Positions 3,257-63,999 of a stretch of 64,000 bases of DNA are shown in pieces (the stretch's first letter is position 1; each line of letters opens with the position of its first letter). The notes under the pieces were generated by a model, which was given only the letters and a program-made list of their open reading frames with translations, did no database searches and was not told the origin of the DNA. The stretch lies in assembly GCA_000165345.1 (NCBI GenBank), contig CM000431.1, positions 416,001 to 480,000 on the forward strand, given 5' to 3'. The position numbers and the translations under genes were made by a program.

Positions 3257-3313
3257 TTTTATTTTTTAATACCGGTATTATTTTCATGTGGATAATTGTA
3301 TTAGTTGTCAGAA

Positions 3314-3321
3314 TGCATGCA
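3314..3321. promoter_or_regulatory. TGCATGCA palindromic element, ~185 bp upstream of the mucin-like gene
   Basis: Exact octamer. GCATGCA-type motifs recur in upstream regions throughout the window. Confidence 0.4.
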
Positions 3322-12307: not shown

Positions 12308-12904
12308 ATGATTTCGAATGAAGGTTTGATCACAGTATACTATTTCATACCGTCAGATGGCGATAAAGAGAATAATCCTAATACATTTAAAGTGAAAGGA
12401 ACTCATTCAACTCTTACAACAAAACAAATAAAAGATTCATTTCCATTACCTGGAATTTATTACTTTAGATTTAAAGTACGTGTTGGGAATACTTACGCAT
12501 GGATGGATCCTTTAAATGATGATGATATTGTGCCACTATACGATGATGCAATTATAGCAAAGGTTTTGAGAATCAACTGGGACTACAAAAATAAATTTAC
12601 CCAGAGATTAAATAACAAACAAGACGCTTATTCAATTTCATCAGGTGTAATTCCTTCTCCCAACTCTTTGAATCAAGCATTTTATCAATCACAACCACCT
12701 TCACAGGCTTCCCAACCCCACCATCCATCTTCACCTCCTCCTCCTCCCCCACCTCCACCGCCACCACCACCACCGCCTCCAGTTTTGAGGCATTCAGTGA
12801 CGGCTTCAGCTACAATTCCATCATCATCAAACTCAAATAATATTGACTTAATTGACTTAAACTGTGAACATTCTAAATGGAATTCAAATTCTGGATACAT
12901 TTAA
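12308..12904 (+). CDS. Small protein with an N-terminal DIX-like ubiquitin-fold domain followed by a 17-residue poly-Pro tract (198 aa)
   Basis: ATG at 12308. Residues 8-90 (ITVYYFIPSDG...TLTTKQIKDSF...IYYFRFKVRV...WMDPLNDDDIVPLYDDAIIAKVLRI) align in pattern with the Dishevelled/Axin DIX motifs (VIYHLD...TLGDFK...YFFKS...[21 protein letters not shown]). This is followed by PSSPPPPPPPPPPPPPPPPPV. Confidence 0.5.
   Translation: MISNEGLITVYYFIPSDGDKENNPNTFKVKGTHSTLTTKQIKDSFPLPGIYYFRFKVRVGNTYAWMDPLNDDDIVPLYDDAIIAKVLRINWDYKNKFTQRLNNKQDAYSISSGVIPSPNSLNQAFYQSQPPSQASQPHHPSSPPPPPPPPPPPPPPPPVLRHSVTASATIPSSSNSNNIDLIDLNCEHSKWNSNSGYI
12733..12783 (+). repeat. CCN-codon tract encoding P17; the GC-richest stretch of the window
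   Basis: The sequence reads cctcctcctcctcccccacctccaccgccaccaccaccaccgcctcca. Confidence 0.9.
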
Positions 12905-13594
12905 AGTTTAAATGCAAATTAAAGAGATTTTGATTAAGGGTTTTTTTTTTCTTTCTAAATCTAAATATACATAAGTAATTGAGAATACATAATTAAACTA
13001 TAATAGAGATAATATTCGCTTATAATAGTACGGTTTATAAAGATTTTCAAAGTCTTTATTTCCTTTAATTTGGAATTTTGAAAATTTTACCTTCAAAAAT
13101 ATAATTTTTTTAAAATAATTTTTGTAAGATATGCCATTTGGTAATAATGCATGCAAAAAACTTTGTTCTAATACCGGCGACACGTAATTATTTTATACCA
13201 TAATTCTTTAAAATTTAATAATTGGCAATATTTTAAAAATTTGGAGATTTTCTAATTGTATGCTTTTGTTCTTGTTTGGTTTATTAGAAAATTCGATTAA
13301 CTTTTTTTCCTCGATTCTCTTCCTCTCACTTTCTCTTAAAATACTTTTGCTTCAAATGAATTTAAATTTTCTATATATTGATTATAAAAAAGTTGAAAAC
13401 GTTATCATATCTTAAAATCATTTCAAGAGTAAAAAAAAGTTGTATGTTGAAATATTATTAAAAGTGAATTTATCAAATAATTTAAGACAAATCAAAATTT
13501 ACAAATAATTCAAACTAATAATAAAGAATAAAATTATACATGTTCATTTTTTTCAATCAAAAATAATTTTGTCCATTGACAATTAATTACTTCT

Positions 13595-13650
13595 GCCACG
13601 TAATGTTTTTTAAAGCACTGCATGCATTTTAAACATCGAAATTACGTGGC
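13595..13650. promoter_or_regulatory. Nested palindrome GCCACGTAAT-N14-TGCATGCA-N14-ATTACGTGGC in a convergent intergenic region
   Basis: A perfect 10-bp inverted repeat (13595-13604 and 13641-13650) is centred exactly on the TGCATGCA palindrome (13619-13626). A second TGCATGCA (13148-13155) plus CACGTAAT (13181-13188) pair lies 450 bp away. Confidence 0.5.
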
Positions 13651-14127
13651 AAGAATAGATACATTCTCAAATACAAAAAAACTGTAAACGAATAGCGAAC
13701 CAAAGAAACTATTATATATCAAAACAAATAATAGAAAAAGCACTTAGGAACTCTTTCTGTATTTAACTACACGCAAAAATAATGTGTGCAATCCGTCACT
13801 TGAACTTTATTTTAAGCAACTTTTAATAAAAGCCTATTGAATATTTATATGCGAACAAAAAAACTATTAGCAGATACGGTAAAATAATACAAATCACCGA
13901 ATAATTGAAATAATGGAATCCCTTGCATCTTTGAAAAATAAACAGTAAATTTCTCCGTCTATTAAACTGACGAAACACCAATAACAAAAATTTAATATAG
14001 AATTCAGATTATTGGTGAGCTTTTCACCGTATTCGGCTTGAATATATTGAAGAGCACTTCACCTCTGCTAAAGTCCTCATAATAATGTCCAATAGTCTGG
14101 AATAAAGAACGTTGCAACGTCAATTAA

Positions 14128-14616
14128 TTAGTATCCCTGAGATACGAGGTACTCGGCTAGTTGCAGAGCAACCTTCTTGCAATTACCTGATGATTGATCC
14201 TTGGATTCGTCGTAAACTGCAACAACAACAGTACCGTTTTGAGTATCAACTAAAAAACATCCACCTTGAGGTCTGTTACAAAATGTAACATGAACGGTAG
14301 CATCGTTTTGCTGGAAGTCCTTCTCTACACGGATAATCTTATATTTGTTTCCTCCGACCCAAACGCCGTTTGGTGCCTTACCTTCGGAGATTGCTTGGCA
14401 TAGTGTAGTTTGATCATTAATTAATTCAGCAGCCTCTGAAACTCCGTCAGATTGAATAACATTCTCTTCATGATCTTCTCTAACAAGAGTCTTCCAGGCA
14501 TCACCTTGATCAGCAGAAGCAGCATAGAATGCACCATCTATTGAACAAAGACCACCAGCACATACACTACCGGTGTCAATTAACCATTCTTTGACCATAT
14601 CATCCCATTCAGACAT
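14128..14616 (-). CDS. PRF: Profilin (apicomplexan type, 162 aa)
   Basis: ATG verified (cat at 14614-14616). Full-length alignment with apicomplexan profilins, e.g. MSEWDDMVKEWL.DTG..CAGG and the C-terminal ...ALAFAEYL.QSGY pattern, including the apicomplexan-specific acidic insertion (ASADQGDAWKTLVREDHEEN). Confidence 0.95.
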   Translation of the reverse strand: MSEWDDMVKEWLIDTGSVCAGGLCSIDGAFYAASADQGDAWKTLVREDHEENVIQSDGVSEAAELINDQTTLCQAISEGKAPNGVWVGGNKYKIIRVEKDFQQNDATVHVTFCNRPQGGCFLVDTQNGTVVVAVYDESKDQSSGNCKKVALQLAEYLVSQGY

Positions 14617-16150
14617 CTTTAATTAATTAAGTAAAATATAAAAATAGCGGAGTAAAAGATAAAATAATATAAGTTCTGATTGAGCTAAAATAACTTTTAC
14701 AAAACTGTTTGAATTATGAAATTTTCCCTAATATTGCTTTTTTGACATGTATTTACTATGGATTTTACACGCATATACGCGTCCCAAAAAAAAAAACAAA
14801 TCAACGTCTTGTCTATACCGCCAGTAAAGTGTAAAATTGTAAAATAATTATAATTACGTTTAATGTGTATAGGTATATATAAAACGAGAAATTTTTTTTT
14901 TTTTTTTTACTGATGTATATCAAGTAATTTAAAAGGTGTAAAAGCTAGGAATAATTATTAAAACGTAAATTCAGATTTTCACTACGCATTGTATACACTA
15001 GAAAATTTTTTCAAGAATGAAAAGTGGCATTGATATATTAATTAAATTAGTAGGCAGATAAGCTACGGGTCAAAATATCCGACTTAATGTCAAAAATTAT
15101 TCATTTTTAGATTGCATTAGAGGACGTTATTATTACTAACGTTATAATAATTACAGGATATCTATTATGTAGGAAAGTATTTGTATCAACGTTATTATGA
15201 TATTACCCTCAACTTTTTCTATTTTATTATTTATTATCTCCGAATGATTTTGAAGTAGTAATTTATTTTAAAGAAAAATTAAATATATTGAATTATTGTA
15301 TGAGAAAAAATAGAACTTGATAAACTTGTTTAGAAAATTATTTGAATTTAGGAAATTGATTTAACATTTACTTGAATATTTTAAATATAAATTAATAAAT
15401 ACAATACAACTCAAAATTTAATTTGGCAAGTGATCGTAACAAGAAAGCTATTTAGAAATTAAAGGTAATTCATTAATCACTTGTTTTATATTATTTAATT
15501 AAAGAATTTAGCTTTTTATTTTCTCAATAATATATCAACTCATTAAAATTAGTCATTTTGCATGCAATGTATAGTACCGGCATGCGACAATATTTAATTA
15601 ATAATATTTCCACATGAATTTATCAAAATGCATGCATTTCCACATTAAATTTTTTCCGAGTATTAATAGTAGTGTATTTTAATGAATGACTTTAATTGAA
15701 AAAAAAAAAAAATTTGAAATAAATATCAAATTGCGATGAATAAAAGCAAATTATATGAATCAAGATAATAAGAAGAATGAAAGAAAATTAAATTCTAGGA
15801 TTTGATTAACTAACAATGAATAAATTTCTAAAGATTGATTAAAAAAAGTAAAAAAGATGAGTTTAATTAAATTGCATGCAAAAATAAGAAGCGCTGGAAT
15901 TAGAAATAATATGAATAATATGAAATATTGAGGAGCAAGAACATAGAAAAAAATATTAATCGGTTTACAAGTAAACGATATCTAGGGTTTAAGTTAAGGA
16001 ACAATTTTTTTTAAATTAATTACTAAAAAAATCCTTATTCCTCTGAAATTATAAGAAATACCAGGGTTCGAATGTAAGGAAAGTTATAAATAAGGTATTA
16101 AACAAGTTATATAATGACAATAAGATAGAAAGGAAAAGTAAGCAATTAAT

Positions 16151-20334: not shown

Positions 20335-20369
20335 TTTTCCCGCCAATACGAAGATTTTGCATGCATGCA
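20335..20369. promoter_or_regulatory. TTTTCCCGCCAAT (E2F-like) plus TGCATGCATGCA inside the 76-bp gap between two convergent stop codons
   Basis: GH31 stop at 20312-20314. Helicase stop (minus strand) at 20391-20393. The motifs sit at 20335-20347 and 20358-20369. Confidence 0.4.
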
Positions 20370-20390
20370 AAAAAAAAAGAAAAATAAGAT

Positions 20391-31319: not shown

Positions 31320-31940
31320 CTAGATCAATAAAAAAAATATTAAGTAGAAACCTCATAGATGTACATAATAATAAGCAGTAATAAACAGAGACTGTAAGAT
31401 AATATAAAAATAAGTTTTTTTTTTAAATTGAGAAATAATTTAATAAAAAAAAGAGTATTAGAAAGGAGAGTTGATAGGTAAATAAGTAGCAAAAATATTT
31501 ATTCACCTATTTTTGAGTTATAGAAACAGATATTTTGCGATATATTTGGTTCAGTGAAACGGGTTAAATTAATTTGTGGACTAAAGAAAGTATTGCTGGA
31601 GATATATACTTATAATAATTAATTTTCATAATATTGAGATATTGTTTGATTTTAAGTTTACCTTCTATTTTTGAATTAAATACTACTGTGAGATTGCCTC
31701 AGAATTTATAGTACCTGGTCTATTTTACTAAATCTGGCATTTTTTTAACAGAATATATATAAAATTGAAAATATTTACCTTAATATCAAAAAGTTAATAT
31801 CCAATCGTCAAGTATTATTTTAGTTATATGGGAATTAGACTCTGGATATAAACAGTTTTGAAGTAATTGCTTATCACTATATTATATTATGATCAGATAG
31901 AGAAACTGAATCTTTCTGTTTTCATCTAATATTCACTATA

Positions 31941-32030
31941 CGCACATATATATATATGTGTATTAATTTATATATATATGTATATATATATATATATTTA
32001 TGTATGTATATATATGTATACGCATATAAA
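31941..32030. repeat. Compound (TA)n/(TG)n simple repeat immediately upstream of the 32055 start
   Basis: The sequence reads cacatatatatatatgtgtattaatttatatatatatgtatatatatatatatatttatgtatgtatatatatgtatacgcatat. Confidence 0.85.
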
Positions 32031-32054
32031 TAAGATATTATAGTTAAGAATAAC

Positions 32055-33425: not shown

Positions 33426-33884
33426 CTTAGATTTCATTTTCATCAGAGAATTATATATTATATACTAATATTAGTATCCCAGCTTGCTGTCCCGCCTAAT
33501 CTGTATATAGCTTTCTATATTTATTAAACCTTCTAGAGTTTACTATGTGGCTCTTGTGAGAGAAATTATGATTATTCTTTACTAGTTTGCTCTTAATATG
33601 TGGGATAAGTTCTTTTTTTAGTTGGTTTTAATGTTTTATTTGAATGAGCTGGAAGAATTGATATCAATTAGCAGATTGCATGCACACATTCTGGCGCCAG
33701 AAAAAAATGAGAAACATAGAAAAAAAGGCAAGGTAATTTTCCAAACATTCAGACGAAGCAATCAGACTTCAGAATAGAAAAGAAGAATATTAAAACAAAA
33801 AGTATTAGAGAATAAGAGAAGATTCTTGTAAAAATGAAAATTTAACCCTTAATAATATATTAAAAAATATGGCGCCAATATATT

Positions 33885-38049: not shown

Positions 38050-40693
38050 ATTGTTTTTGTTTAAAATAGCATTCCAAATTAAAATCTTACAGATATAATT
38101 TAAGAACATAATTTATGCGCTATATGCTATGAGATCATCATAACTATTTAAGTACATAAATCAAAGGTTAAATAAAGGTACTTTAAATTTTTTTTTTTTT
38201 TTTTTCTCCCACAAACACAACCCAAACAATTAATCACAAAATAACTTGTATAAATGTTTAGAGTTTAAAATGTACTGATACAATTTACTTTGATTTCAAA
38301 GTATTTTTGTTCTTCAATACGCAATTATAAGAAAGAAGAAAAAATCTTCTAACTCAACTCTAATTTTTTTCCTGCGAACTTAGCATATATATTTCAAAGA
38401 TATGCATTATCGCTAAATTTTATGCAAAAATCTCTTTAAGAATTCACTTGATATTCTCTCGGAGTGAATGCTTACACTTAATAGTTATGATAACTATTCA
38501 GAAACAAAACAAAAAAAAATCAACAAAATACAACAAAACAATGCGAAAACAACAAATAAAAAACGTAATAATCACCATATAAACTTGCACTCTTCCACAA
38601 AAATATTTCTCGTGTGCTTTGTTTACATAAATATATAGCTTTGCGCATTTTCATATAGTGCACAATCTGTAGATTTCTGTTCTGGTAAAGCATACATGGC
38701 GCCACATTGTAGCGCATTTTTGCCAATTCTGAAATTCCACTTAATTAACTCTCAAAGAACTTCAAAAGATTTATTGATAACTTCATGGACATCATCCTCT
38801 AACACATTACCTTGCACAAATGCAATACTATCCGCAGTTTTAAAGTCTCCAAGACTTTCTTACACAGGAAAACTGATACTTTAGGGTCAACAAGAGAAAA
38901 CAGTCATTTTTGTTGGAAAGAAACAGAACCAAATATTTACATATATCCAATCAATATGAATCCTTAGAACATAAGTATTAGTATAATTGTTTCTTTATTA
39001 TTTTCTTATTTACATTAAGAACACATTTAAACTTGAAACAAAAATTAGGGAAATTACTTACAAAATTAACCTACAAAATAACACAAATGAAAAATAGCTC
39101 AACGATATAAAATCAGTTTCTGAGATTATTTGATAAAGCAAAAACTTATATTTTTGAAATTCTCTGCATGTGTTCTCGCTTACGTGTGTGTTAGAGTGTG
39201 TATATGGATATTTTTTATTTGTCAATGCTCGAAAATTAGTAAAAAAAAATTTACTAGTAAGCAATTAGAAAAATTTTAAAATTGTCAACTTTTTTTTTTT
39301 CAATGCTAAACTTCCATTCTCACACTATCTTATTAGTGCCAACCTCATTAATATATTAAAGAACCAATACTTTCTCAGATTTAATCAGGATTTTCTCCAA
39401 TGCTAATTTTAGTTATTCACACTATAATAAAGCTTGCATACATTAATTTTTCTTTAAACAAAATTATTAAAAAAGAAGAAAATAACGAATTAAATATATA
39501 TATATATGTATATTTTTTAGAAAAGAAAAAACCCTAAATCATGTTTTGAAATAAAGTGATAATTCTTGCACTCAATTAAGTATTTAGAATAATTCAAACT
39601 ATATTAAACAATTAAAATATAAGTTTCAAATCCTTCACTATCATTAGGTATTATATACAATACTAACTTATTTCTTAGAAAAGTTATAAATTTCAATTAT
39701 AACATTAAATACATACTTTTGTTGTTTTTATAGGAAAATTAAGCAGTAATTAAAACTCTAAATTATTTACTGATTTCAGTAAAAATATTGAGCTAATCAA
39801 TGAAAATCTCACTAACCAATTTGGTTCAATCTTATATTTATCAAATGAAGAAATGCAAAAATAAATTGTAATAATAAAAGTATCTAATAGTAATTGATTT
39901 ATGAAAATTAAATATTTAAAGTTAAAAATAATCGAACTCTCATGTATCATAATTTATTTATTGATCAATTACAGATTAATAAATTTCTCACAAAGATATT
40001 TCAAGATAAAAAGCTGTAAAAGTGTTGAATCTGTAATTTCCACTTAATATATAGAGTTCTTTGGATCTCTATAAAACTAAATGTATTAAATTAATTATTT
40101 AATTGAGTTCCAATCCAATATTGACTTAATAGAATAGCTGAGAACCTAGAAAGGAATTTTTTTCATGAATCCAGTAATTAAAGGTACATCAAAAGTTAAT
40201 TTGGTCAATAACCAATTCATAAATAGAGAAAAAGTAGATAATAAAATTATTAAAAATTTCTCAAAGATTATTTGGATTCCAAAGGTTGATTAGTCTTGAA
40301 ATGAAAATCTGCACATCTTTAAATGTATTGCTTAAGTTTATAACAAAAAAAACTATAGCTCACTTTAACAAGTCTAAATATTAAATCTTTAATAGAGCTT
40401 GCCATTCAAAAAAAAAAAAAAGTTAATTTTGTAATAAATGTGTATTTTGTGTAATTTTTGTATTTGAATAAGATTTTACCTCAAATTATAGCAATATTCT
40501 TCTTTTATGGCAAAAAAAACAACCTATATTTCACATATTTTACTAAATACTGTCAATAATTGATACGAGCGCTAAGCTTCCACTAAATTCTGAAATGCAA
40601 AAAGATTAAAAGTCAACAATGCACATACCCGCCAAATCATTCTGATCAAAAATTTTTAGATTAAAAAATTTTTTTTAATGGTAGAGTAATACA

Positions 40694-41654
40694 ATGAACC
40701 AGATTTTGCTCAAGTATACATCAGTATTTTTTTTATTGATTGCTTTTTTTGATCAATTAGTTGAATTGAATGATTTGACTGCTACTTTCAAAGATATTAG
40801 CTTTGTAAGGCTTAGTGCAGTATATTATGGTAATTTTCATGAAAAAATAGAAGTTCTGGAGACTGATATAGAAAATCCTCCACAATTAGATTTATCAGAA
40901 ATGGCATATACTGAAGAAGTCGATATTATCTCACATAGCATGGCTGAATCACTTAGATCGATTTAAAATACCAGACTGTAAGCTTAATATCTTATATAAA
41001 GCTGTAAATACCCTTTTGCATAGCATGTTTTTATTTGAAAAACAAAAGTGTATACTTCAATTGCTTAAAACAAAATATAGAAAAAGAAAATGCGATTCAT
41101 TGCCTAGAATAATTTCTGTTTCATTAAGTTGTCGTAGAATTATGAAACAAATTGAAAATTTGGAAAAATCATTGGAAAAATTAACTGAACAAATTAAAAA
41201 ACTTGAGAGATATATTTTGAATTGTTTCCTATCTGCTATAAAAATGTTATGGAAGGAAGGGCGAGAACAATCCTTCGAAATAGATGAAGAAGCTGCAAAA
41301 GAATGTGACTATAAAGAATTGTACTTAATTTGGCAAGAACAACAACTTTTAAAGAAATATAAAACATTATTAAACTCATTTACTACTTCAAGCTTTGGGA
41401 AAAAAGCTTCAAGAAGTTCAAATACTTCATGCTTTTGTAGAAAAACCCAAAGTGCAAAGTGCAAAAAATATGCATTTAAAAGGTTTCTCTTAACATTAGA
41501 AAAAGTTGAAGCAAAGATTAAAAGTTTGACTGTTGAATTTGTGAGTTGTGCTTCATATTTAACTCTCAATGGCATATCTAATAATGAAGCAGAACCAACA
41601 AATGAAAATAGGCCCGCCTCTTTAATTGGTTCATTGGGTGAGCTATTGAGTTAA
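40694..41654 (+). pseudogene. Array member split into two reading frames: a signal-peptide plus motif N-terminal piece (40694-40966) and a C-terminal helical Cys domain (41025-41654)
   Basis: The 90-aa ORF carries MNQILLKYTSVFFLLIAFF...DISFVRLSA and ends at TAA 40964-40966. The next ORF (other frame; the track start 41016 is TTG, first ATG 41025) begins directly with the family's Cys-spaced helical domain (KCILQLLKTKYRKRKCDSLPRIISVSLSCRRIMKQIENLEK) and has no signal peptide. No GT...AG intron is evident. Confidence 0.45.
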
Positions 41655-62214: not shown

Positions 62215-63999
62215 TTACTTGAGAGAATTAATAAAACTCTGAATGTTTTGATCACCAACAAAATGATTAGATATCTCATTTAAATATGGTTGAAAAGTAA
62301 TCTTCATTAAATTTAATTGTTCTGAATTTCTTATACATTCAATGAAATTGCATGCATGCGCACTATTGGCGCCAATGCCGGTACTGGATGGTCCGCTAGT
62401 TAGAATCTGTAAAATTTCTTTATGGCTGGGATAAGAGTTATTGGAAGAGTGACAAGACGCAGTCAGAAGTTTGTGGTAATTAATCTCGAACTCATCTTGA
62501 ATGGGGTTTTGTGAGTCTAAATTTGAATCAGGGAGAACAGCAAGGTAGTTGCTTTGAGCTGAGTCATCAGAGACGCCACTAGGGTCAGTAGATATGGAAT
62601 TTCTTCTCTGGAAGTTTGGGTCATCCGAAAGTTTTATTGCATTAAAAAGAAGGTAAACTGACTTGAATGCTTCAAGAACAAAGTCATTGCGTTTGCTTTG
62701 TTCAAAAGTTAGTTCGGAGACCAGCTTTAAAAGTGCAATAAAAATAGTATATCTGAGAGGAGGTGAAAGCGTGGCTTTAAGTAGGTTTGGGAAAACCACC
62801 TTGCTGAAGAAGATAAACGAGAGCCCATTCTGAAGTGTATCGAGAACGTTAAGAAGAGAAGTCTCTGGCATCTCTCCATACGGCTTTTTAATTACAATTA
62901 TTGAAAATGCTCCAACGACTTGGATTATTGTCTGGTGGTCTCCAATTCGATTCCACTCCTGAGATTTAGTAAGTAGAAGATTGGCTAGTGCGGTCAAGTA
63001 CTGAGAATACCATTGGAAAGGAAGGAAGCGAACGATGTCTCGAAGGAATTCAAAGGAGAGAGTTGATTGGAATCTCCTGTGACTCAGACAAAACTGGAAG
63101 CGTTCAAACACCTGCTTAACATGGCTGGAAATGGTGGCTTCAAATAATGAATGTCTCTTGAAGAAAGAACTGCAGAGTCGGACAATCCCAGGTACTGCAG
63201 ATGCAGGCCCATGCCAGATCTTTGCATCAATCAAATGGATAAAGAGCTTGTCATAAAGCTCATTCTGGCTAGCTAAGGTGTCTAGCCTAAGAGCAAGTAG
63301 CTGTAGAGAGTATGGAATGAAGTCTGTTAGATTCTTCTCTAGGATTCCAATGAGTATCGGTAGGACAAAATTATCCAATTTTTCACAATCTGAAGAATTT
63401 CTTATACAGACTCCAAGAAGCTCAAATAAGTAGTGGTTGAAGGACGGATTCTTTGGGTTCTCCACTGCAAGCTTTGTGCACTCTGCAATGGTGGGAGCCA
63501 AAGTATTAACCAATTCGGATCCAAGCTTACCTAAATACGTCAAGAGTCTCATCATACATCTAGGAATAAATTCGCTCTCTGTCAAATAAGTCCTTTTATC
63601 TCCTCCTTGGAAGGCTTTTTTGAGCATTGGATGAAGAATATTCCCAATCATCTGGAAACATAGATTATATGTCTCTGCTGGGGAAAGCTTAAAAACAGTT
63701 TCCTGGCTGCCCATTCCTTGTTGGACTTTTAATAAAGCTCCTCCTGAGTTTGAATTATCATTAGATGTGCAAATACTAGTATTTGCACCAATTCCACCAC
63801 CCTGAATTGAAGGGTTTCCAGTAGATGATGCTGTTTTTTGGGTTAATATCCTCTCAAACGCCAACAAAATCATCATCTCCTCAATGCTGGAAGTTTGAGT
63901 AGAAAGCCAATTGTAGGACTGCTGGAGAATATCCAGGGAAGAAGCGTTATTGAAGTGACTTTTGAAAACAATCAGGTACTTTAAAGCACAGCAACGCAT
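62215..63999 (-). CDS. Alpha-helical (HEAT/ARM-like) protein, C-terminal ~594 aa; probably truncated by the window edge
   Basis: Long helical ORF that reaches the last codon of the window (cat at 63997-63999). No family-specific motif recognised. Confidence 0.4.
   Translation of the reverse strand: MRCCALKYLIVFKSHFNNASSLDILQQSYNWLSTQTSSIEEMMILLAFERILTQKTASSTGNPSIQGGGIGANTSICTSNDNSNSGGALLKVQQGMGSQETVFKLSPAETYNLCFQMIGNILHPMLKKAFQGGDKRTYLTESEFIPRCMMRLLTYLGKLGSELVNTLAPTIAECTKLAVENPKNPSFNHYLFELLGVCIRNSSDCEKLDNFVLPILIGILEKNLTDFIPYSLQLLALRLDTLASQNELYDKLFIHLIDAKIWHGPASAVPGIVRLCSSFFKRHSLFEATISSHVKQVFERFQFCLSHRRFQSTLSFEFLRDIVRFLPFQWYSQYLTALANLLLTKSQEWNRIGDHQTIIQVVGAFSIIVIKKPYGEMPETSLLNVLDTLQNGLSFIFFSKVVFPNLLKATLSPPLRYTIFIALLKLVSELTFEQSKRNDFVLEAFKSVYLLFNAIKLSDDPNFQRRNSISTDPSGVSDDSAQSNYLAVLPDSNLDSQNPIQDEFEINYHKLLTASCHSSNNSYPSHKEILQILTSGPSSTGIGANSAHACNFIECIRNSEQLNLMKITFQPYLNEISNHFVGDQNIQSFINSLK

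Follow-up and report, generated by a model that had tools for sequence, protein, structure and literature searches.

The convergent region between the DIX-domain and profilin genes

The window, by which we mean the whole 64-kb stretch of DNA analysed, belongs to chromosome 3 of Cryptosporidium parvum and has a G+C content of ~29%. As the initial annotation had it, two genes converge here, one on the + strand, which proves to encode a DIX-domain protein, and the profilin gene on the − strand.

12308–12904, + strand: ORF of the DIX-domain gene (Pfam E-value 1.8e-9)
12905–14127, unstranded: convergent intergenic region of 1223 bp, from the DIX-domain gene to the profilin gene
14128–14616, − strand: profilin gene, with a product identical to C. 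parvum profilin

The mean intergenic distance in C. parvum is 504 bp (PMC7840661), and the gap between the two genes is ~2.4 times this genome average. Its sequence is the same in five C. parvum assemblies except for one T in a poly-T run, and its length is kept at 1121–1281 bp in seven species including C. parvum. In seven annotated genomes, no gene is called in the orthologous gap.

Two clusters of short motifs lie within the gap. One of them, hereafter cluster 2, starts 244 bp past the DIX stop codon, and the other, a nested palindrome, lies 476–533 bp past the profilin stop codon. Another ATTACGT box, kept in four species, is found ~237 bp 5′ of the profilin ATG. The Logan contigs L014–L016, which are short and carry a profilin variant, derive from another Cryptosporidium species and are uninformative on the UTR ends. 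A scan of the region for bacterial promoters and terminators was set aside as irrelevant to a eukaryote.

Architecture of the nested palindrome

The initial annotation had described GCCACGTAAT at 13595–13604, TGCATGCA at 13619–13626 and ATTACGTGGC at 13641–13650 as a palindrome nested within an inverted repeat. All three sequences are found at these places, and the two spacers are exactly 14 and 14 nt. The perfect arms measure 11 bp rather than the 10 bp claimed earlier, so that the architecture reads TGCCACGTAAT-N14-TGCATGCA-N14-ATTACGTGGCA over 13594–13651.

13594–13604, unstranded: left arm TGCCACGTAAT, an 11-bp perfect complement of 13641–13651
13619–13626, unstranded: central TGCATGCA, the AP2_1 site of ApiAP2 proteins, at the midpoint between the arms with 14 nt on each side
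13641–13651, unstranded: right arm ATTACGTGGCA, an 11-bp perfect complement of the left arm

When one bulge is allowed, the complementarity of the arms extends to 14–15 bp. Protein-binding microarrays show that several AP2 domains of C. parvum bind the octamer in the centre, AP2_1 (PMC3734150, PMC4117751, PMC12246861), the data being for the isolated motif (PMC3734150, PMC4117751). The arm sequence GCCAC/GTAAT is an ACGT-core box, in which a G-box half-site is joined to an A-box half-site. It is present twice, together with GACAC/GTAAT, and two recognisable half-sites flank the ACGT core. A single arm already looks like a complete ACGT-core dimer site.

Inverted repeats of 10 bp are frequent per se in the window (135 pairs), but most of them are TA-rich. 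A symmetric arm of at least 10 bp has a probability of 5e-4 per random centre, or ~0.007 for 14 centres, and the remaining 13 TGCATGCA sites of the window have symmetric arms of at most 4 bp. Within the window, the nested-palindrome architecture occurs at one locus only.

Composition of cluster 2

The second pair of elements pointed out earlier, TGCATGCA at 13148–13155 and GACACGTAAT at 13179–13188, is likewise present. Between them lies a further element, TACCGG, and the cluster consists of TGCATGCA at 13148, TACCGG at 13172 and CACGTAAT at 13181.

13148–13155, unstranded: second TGCATGCA, with TGCATG kept in six of seven species
13168–13188, unstranded: TAATACCGGCGACACGTAATT, a TACCGG element followed by the CACGTAAT box, the best conserved block of the gap
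13247–13293, + strand: TTGGAGATTTTCTAATTG, a conserved block that contains the inverted repeat TTTTCTAAT/ATTAGAAAA, its role putative

Across seven species, the block at 13168–13188 reads TAATACCGGYG..ACGTAATT, with ACATAAT in C. ubiquitum. Its TACCGG matches the ATACCGG core of ‘motif 4’, an element described 5′ of lncRNAs in C. parvum (Li et al. 2021, PMC7840661); Table S3 of that study gives the instances CCTATACCGGCTGTC and CCCATACCGGCGTTC. Cluster 2 carries two of the motif types enriched 5′ of lncRNAs, AP2_1 and, as its ATACCGG core, motif 4. A CCACAT-type motif 5 is added to cluster 2 in chipmunk genotype I, C. ubiquitum and C. canis. The block at 13247–13293 provides no covariation evidence, because it is invariant.

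Over-representation and recurrence of the motifs

In the counts that follow, ORFs are those of at least 110 aa. There are 14 occurrences of the octamer TGCATGCA in the 64 kb, of which 12 lie outside ORFs, as against ~0.5–2 expected. It is present at four of the five convergent junctions of the window, three of which also have an E2F site. The second motif, CACGTAAT/ATTACGTG, occurs five times in non-ORF DNA as against 0.35–0.5 expected under Markov models of non-ORF DNA, an enrichment of ~10-fold, and is absent from the ORFs of the window. Three of the four independent CACGTAAT loci lie within 70 bp of TGCATGCA, a zone that makes up 6.3% of the non-ORF DNA, and the fourth is ~55 bp from CATGCATACATGCA. 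These CACGTAAT statistics cover one 64-kb window and four independent loci.

The initial annotation had also reported that the two motifs recur as a pair near both ends of the window. This holds at 59736–59808, where ATTACGTG is accompanied by two TGCATG sites and TGCATGCA, but at 143–244 the GCATGC hexamer is missing. The latter segment has two CATGCA sites (147 and 155) and ATGCAT, followed by ATTACGTG at 230. With its full extent, the former is the third instance of the motif set:

59725–59808, unstranded: ATTACGCAAT-T-ATTACGTG at 59725–59743, TGCATG at 59750, TGCATG at 59787 and TGCATGCA at 59801

Positions 222–243 and 59727–59748 share a discrete 22-bp element, TA(T/C)G(T/C)AATTATTACGTGTGAAA. 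A dispersed repeat was ruled out, as the flanks of the sites at 228–244 and 59734–59750 have no similarity beyond these 22 bp. The ACGT boxes often form inverted pairs, CACGTAAT-T-ATTACGTG, as at 222–237 (in decayed form) and in C. ubiquitum.

The ACGT-core motif is absent from the 25 upstream motifs of PMC3734150, from the motif and AP2 tables of PMC12246861 and from the five lncRNA motifs of PMC7840661, and no C. parvum AP2 domain is given an ACGT-core motif in Table 4 of PMC12246861. A literature search for the motif strings returned unrelated papers only. Given its absence from the published motif tables, CACGTAAT/ATTACGTG appears to be a second motif that is undescribed in the literature, as far as this can be searched.

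Conservation among Cryptosporidium species

We compared the orthologous loci of C. hominis, C. tyzzeri, C. meleagridis, chipmunk genotype I, C. ubiquitum, C. canis, C. felis and C. bovis, and the first six of these were aligned with C. parvum in a seven-species alignment. Invariant columns make up 19% of this alignment. Only two blocks reach at least 10 invariant columns out of 15, namely 13162–13180 and 13616–13631. The former, TTCTAATACCGGYG, is continuous with the ACGTAAT box at 13182–13188, which is kept in six of the seven species, while the latter surrounds the central TGCATGCA, which is invariant in all seven. The two strongly invariant blocks coincide with the two clusters flagged in the initial annotation. 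In the orthologous gap of C. felis and C. bovis, both clusters are absent.

The arms of the palindrome vary more than its centre:

C. meleagridis: both arms perfect
C. hominis: left arm GCTACGTAAT
C. tyzzeri: arms GCCACGTAAC and ATTACGTTGC, with non-compensating changes
Chipmunk genotype I: ATTACGTAGC alone retained
C. ubiquitum: both boxes on one side, CACGTAAT-TTAG-TTACGTG-TAA-TGCATGCA
C. canis: no arm near the centre

Perfect arm symmetry is confined to C. parvum and C. meleagridis. The ATTACGT core of the right arm persists in C. hominis and C. meleagridis as well as in C. tyzzeri (ATTACGTT) and chipmunk genotype I (ATTACGTA). The proposal that the 14/14 spacing is typical of a dimeric factor does not survive this comparison, as only C. 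parvum, C. hominis, C. tyzzeri and C. meleagridis share the spacing, and C. ubiquitum has a rearranged one.

At the 59.7-kb locus, C. ubiquitum has CCACGTAAC-T-ATTACGTGTG-N8-TGCATGCA 5′ of its ortholog of 60206, and in C. meleagridis both ACGT boxes are deleted and the TGCATG sites are kept. Thus, at both loci C. ubiquitum retains the motif content in a flexible arrangement, which is the pattern expected of protein-binding sites. Intergenic DNA of C. parvum and C. ubiquitum is in general 62–66% identical, and the conservation signal therefore resides at the level of motifs and not of blocks. A 319-bp block shared with C. ubiquitum was rejected as special, since other intergenic regions align equally well (62–63%).

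Judged by their sequences, the two clusters are a real, non-random and conserved pair of transcription-factor site clusters. The identity of TGCATGCA with AP2_1, established by protein-binding microarray (PMC3734150, PMC4117751), and the conservation of both clusters bear out the earlier description of these elements as sequence-specific DNA sites.

The motif set lies directly 5′ of a published lncRNA

One published transcript of the window adjoins the motif set at 143–244. In the supplement FASTA of PMC7840661, Cp_lnc_132 matches the window over 410/410 nt and is antisense to the 3′ end of the (−) ORF at 323–2092.

147–237, + strand: reference module 5′ of Cp_lnc_132, with CATGCA twice (147 and 155), ATGTGG at 185, CCGGTA at 195 and ATGTAAT-T-ATTACGTG at 222–237
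271–680, + strand: lncRNA Cp_lnc_132, 410 nt as given in the supplement FASTA

The reverse complement of 190–204 is CCTATACCGGCTGTC, the exact motif 4 instance given at −80 for Cp_lnc_132 (PMC7840661, Table S3). This match and the 410/410 identity therefore place the recurrence at 143–244 at −125 to −34 of Cp_lnc_132. The ACGT box ends 34 bp from the 5′ end of the lncRNA at 271, which, like the other 5′ ends of the catalogue, comes from short-read assembly and is not a mapped transcription start site. Read on the + strand, cluster 2 (TGCATGCA, TACCGG, CACGTAAT) resembles 147–237 in its motifs and, broadly, in their order. The ATGTGG found at cluster 2 in three other species precedes TGCATG, while that at 147–237 follows the CATGCA sites.

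One row of the supplement table gives Cp_lnc_132 the floor value under four conditions and a higher one under the fifth, and the study describes five time points, the last at 48 h (PMC7840661). This is only a hint of stage specificity, since another row under that ID has different values and the columns are taken without their headers.

The initial annotation had assumed that no promoter is expected between convergent genes. This premise is wrong for C. parvum, because lncRNAs initiate there close to the 3′ ends of genes and have AP2_1 and E2F motifs upstream: antisense lncRNAs of this kind accompany ~10% of mRNAs, and antisense promoters at gene 3′ ends are documented (PMC7840661). Most C. 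parvum lncRNAs are antisense, and the 100 bp preceding them are enriched in E2F, AP2_1, poly-T, motif 4 (ATACCGG core) and motif 5 (PMC7840661). At the gap itself, nine probe positions on both strands gave no match in the FASTA of 396 lncRNAs, and neither did probes in the profilin CDS, the DIX CDS and at 59.5 kb, again on both strands. This FASTA is incomplete, lacking for example Cp_lnc_27, and the catalogue is strict; Cp_lnc_132 was recovered from it as a positive control. An equation of GenBank CPATCC_001151 with CPATCC_0011510 proved wrong, and the neighbouring Cp_lnc_235 has no match in the window. The earlier suggestion of a promoter for an unannotated transcript thus gains from the motif set directly 5′ of Cp_lnc_132, but the transcript itself has no match in the incomplete catalogue FASTA.

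Alternative explanations

The clusters might be functional factor sites without being promoters, acting as a 3′-flank enhancer or silencer for profilin or DIX, or as a boundary or roadblock that stops the collision of read-through polymerases. We consider this rather unlikely, although conserved sites inside a gap of conserved length and ~2.4 times the genome average would suit such a role, as would the ATTACGT box ~237 bp upstream of the profilin ATG, kept in four species, and the lack of a catalogued transcript at the locus in the incomplete lncRNA FASTA. All five CACGTAAT sites also lie 79–533 bp past a stop codon, but this proximity has no discriminating value, since in a compact genome nearly every intergenic site is 3′ of some stop codon. 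The occurrence of the same motif set directly 5′ of the documented lncRNA end at 271 argues against a non-promoter role, and for the roadblock variant we found no report of roadblock termination in apicomplexans.

That the motifs were juxtaposed by chance in AT-rich DNA, or that the palindrome is a young, neutral and functionless inverted duplication, is improbable. The abundance of inverted repeats of at least 10 bp, the restriction of perfect symmetry to C. parvum and C. meleagridis and the high baseline of 62–66% intergenic identity with C. ubiquitum are all compatible with chance. However, they are outweighed in our view by the rarity of a symmetric arm around TGCATGCA (~0.007 over 14 centres), by the ~10-fold enrichment of CACGTAAT and its clustering with TGCATGCA, by the coincidence of the clusters with the only strongly invariant blocks of the gap and by the recurrence of the motif content at two C. 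ubiquitum loci.

It is very improbable that the palindrome works as a nucleic-acid hairpin, for example as a terminator, as a stem-loop in an ncRNA or in the 3′ UTR of an mRNA, or as a DNA cruciform where replication starts. Folded as RNA, it has z-scores of −3.9 and −4.1 on the two strands of C. parvum and of −5.1 in C. meleagridis, but of only −0.67 in both C. hominis and C. tyzzeri, where the changes in the arms are non-compensating. In chipmunk genotype I, C. ubiquitum and C. canis the architecture is missing while the motifs persist, and the RNAalifold covariation term is 0 over 13200–13600. No signal of a structured RNA was found with Rfam (at gathering and permissive thresholds), with ARAGORN for tRNAs or with a box C/D snoRNA pattern.

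It is extremely improbable that a protein-coding gene, perhaps a small or a spliced one, was missed in the gap and has the motifs as its promoter: despite the unusual and conserved length of the gap and a 98-aa gene called in the corresponding gap of the C. felis annotation, seven annotated genomes have no gene call there, translated comparison with C. ubiquitum, C. felis and C. bovis matches only the end of the DIX gene, and of the seven C. parvum gap ORFs, three are already interrupted in C. hominis or C. tyzzeri, through stops or frameshifts, and none of the seven is intact in either C. meleagridis or chipmunk genotype I.

Proposed function of the clusters

The reading that we favour, and regard as modestly probable, is that the two clusters are DNA-level transcription-factor site clusters that act as promoters of the lncRNA or antisense type. 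As the same motif set lies just 5′ of Cp_lnc_132, a promoter for a non-coding transcript at the gap is a reasonable interpretation. From the sequences, their non-randomness and conservation and the motif set 5′ of the lncRNA, we infer binding and transcription, together with the direction and stage of the latter, as follows. The clusters would be bound as double-stranded DNA by sequence-specific transcription factors, TGCATGCA by several C. parvum ApiAP2 proteins and CACGTAAT/ATTACGTG by a second factor, with TACCGG added in cluster 2. Together they would form promoter modules of the type from which C. parvum expresses non-coding or antisense RNAs, in a stage-specific manner, at the 3′ ends of its genes. 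The order of the Cp_lnc_132 promoter (AP2_1 sites, TACCGG, ACGT box, ~34 bp, 5′ end) can serve as the model; by analogy with it, cluster 2 would start a (+) transcript near 13215–13230. The conserved block at 13247–13293 would then lie ~25–70 nt 3′ of a predicted (+) start near 13220. The palindrome may be a bidirectional element, with starts near 13560 (−) and 13685 (+), and the predicted transcripts would run antisense towards DIX and profilin. AP2 motifs are reported to be absent from sporozoite ATAC-seq peaks (PMC11761812), so that any activity of the clusters would fall in other stages.

As for the second factor, a bZIP-type dimer as the putative binder of CACGTAAT/ATTACGTG is a guess, and an AP2, Myb or zinc-finger protein could equally bind CACGTAAT. 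A more specific version of the model, possible if doubtful, is that CACGTAAT is the site of an uncharacterised factor, such as the lone non-CCAAT bZIP, which would partner the TGCATGCA-binding ApiAP2s, several of which are female-stage specific, to activate non-coding transcription from gene 3′ ends in late or sexual stages; the palindrome would then be a bidirectional antisense promoter into profilin and DIX. If this is true, the intestinal Cryptosporidium clade has a conserved module dedicated to antisense control.

Little is understood of how Cryptosporidium regulates its genes; to our knowledge, only about six motif families have been described, and few transcription factors have known targets. 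A conserved partner motif of AP2_1 would add a testable cis-element and possibly a non-AP2 regulator, and would supply a sequence rule for predicting lncRNA and antisense promoters. Profilin is an abundant sporozoite antigen, and its antisense control would have practical interest. Without genome-wide enrichment of the motifs, the locus would be one more AP2_1-containing intergenic region.

Comparison with known systems

ACGT-core bZIP sites include the hybrid G-box/A-box ACGT elements of plants and the PAR-bZIP site TTACGTAA. The arm sequence GCCAC/GTAAT resembles these in that G-box and A-box half-sites surround the ACGT core. We know of no bZIP–DNA interaction in Cryptosporidium. A single non-CCAAT bZIP-type protein (‘other’) is found in C. 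parvum, by text search only (PMC3734150, Table 2).

AP2_1, [T/C]GCATGC[A/G], is an ApiAP2 site in Cryptosporidium, Plasmodium and Toxoplasma, whose binders include cgd2_3490, cgd1_3520, AP2-F (cgd4_1110) and others, as well as Plasmodium AP2-Sp. As with known AP2_1 sites, the exact octamer is present in both clusters (13148 and 13619), is non-coding, over-represented in the window and conserved. Unlike them, it lies here in a 3′–3′ gap and not 5′ of an annotated gene, and it is flanked symmetrically by a motif missing from Table 1 of PMC3734150 and Tables 3 and 4 of PMC12246861.

Bidirectional promoters have been proposed for C. parvum from lncRNA–mRNA pairs (PMC7840661) and ATAC-seq peaks (PMC11761812). 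These proposed cases pair an mRNA with an lncRNA or another mRNA, whereas here neither direction has an annotated product. Like the bidirectional promoters of compact protist genomes, the palindrome is a symmetric array of orientation-independent sites, so that firing in both directions is possible.

A further parallel is with the lncRNA promoters of C. parvum (PMC7840661), in particular that of Cp_lnc_132. The clusters differ from these in that the incomplete catalogue FASTA places no lncRNA start at 13.1–13.7 kb and that the ACGT box is outside the five motifs of PMC7840661. On the other hand, they share with them a position just past the 3′ end of a gene and, in cluster 2, the combination of AP2_1, the ATACCGG core of motif 4 and, as at Cp_lnc_132, an ACGT box, in broadly the same order.

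Conservation at the profilin promoter and in the convergent gap

The core promoter of profilin contains a stretch of about 100 bp that is almost invariant in a seven-species comparison. Its conservation is far above that of any part of the gap between the convergent DIX-domain and profilin genes. Within that gap, an inverted repeat lies just 3' of the start site predicted for the second motif cluster (13148-13188). Since the repeat does not vary among the five species compared, the alignment offers no evidence for or against covariation.

14690-14830: profilin core promoter, with an E2F-like TGGCGG, AGACAAGACGTTGATTTG and the palindrome ACGCGTATATGCGTGT
13248-13293: inverted repeat TTTTCTAAT / ATTAGAAAA, invariant in five species

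The DIX-domain protein on the other side of the gap (12308-12904) carries a proline run of about 18 residues. Its exact 198-aa sequence is absent from a collection of 15 billion proteins; genes of 198 aa are annotated at this position in other C. parvum assemblies. In C. felis, where the corresponding gap is shorter (810 bp), the annotation places a 98-aa gene within it (4688-5066 of the orthologous locus, L008). No counterpart was detectable in the other species compared, and the gene call is probably spurious.

Candidate antisense promoters at other convergent junctions

TGCATGCA is paired with an E2F-type site, either TTTCCCGCC or TGGCGCCA, at other convergent gene junctions:

20340-20370: TGCATGCA and E2F-type site
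33677-33700: TGCATGCA and E2F-type site
62349-62380: TGCATGCA and E2F-type site

The gap around one of these pairs measures just 76 bp; another pair is located within ORF 62215-63999, 134 bp in from its 3' end. The pairs look like candidate antisense promoters; sequence probes matched none of the catalogued lncRNAs to these sites.

A conserved element upstream of a fast-evolving gene

60117-60131: CACACGTGTGAGA, whose core CACGTG is palindromic; position about 80 bp 5' of the start codon (ATG) of ORF 60206

C. parvum, C. meleagridis and C. ubiquitum share this element without a single difference, even though the DNA around it and the protein that the gene encodes both evolve fast. The product of ORF 60206-61861 is uncharacterised and very fast-evolving, and is named an integral membrane protein in C. 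meleagridis. The C. parvum protein is 88% identical to that of C. tyzzeri, 82% to that of C. hominis and 70% to that of C. meleagridis; for C. tyzzeri profilin the figure is 99%.

ORF-poor and TA-rich stretches

In the 3.4 kb between 37611 and 41015, the first ORF of at least 90 aa appears only at 40694. The G+C content is 21-28%, and the length compares with a genome average gap of about 0.5 kb. Possible readings of this stretch are a gene rich in introns, a locus for an ncRNA, or a gap of unusual size.

~39165-39190: TGCATG near TACGTGTGTG, inside this stretch

Elsewhere, a run of TA-rich imperfect palindromes of about 100 bp (31937-32040), which supplies the longest inverted repeats of the 64-kb window, directly precedes ORF 32055.

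A possible motif grammar shared with lncRNA promoters

3270-3321 and 15559-15650: TGCATGCA alongside TACCGG (ATACCGGTAT; AGTACCGGCATGC) and elements of the CCACAT type (CATGTGGAT; TTTCCACATG; TTTCCACATT)

The TACCGG and CCACAT-type elements agree with 'motif 4' and 'motif 5', which are enriched upstream of C. parvum lncRNAs (PMC7840661). Their occurrence beside TGCATGCA at both sites suggests that mRNA promoters also use the lncRNA-type motif grammar.
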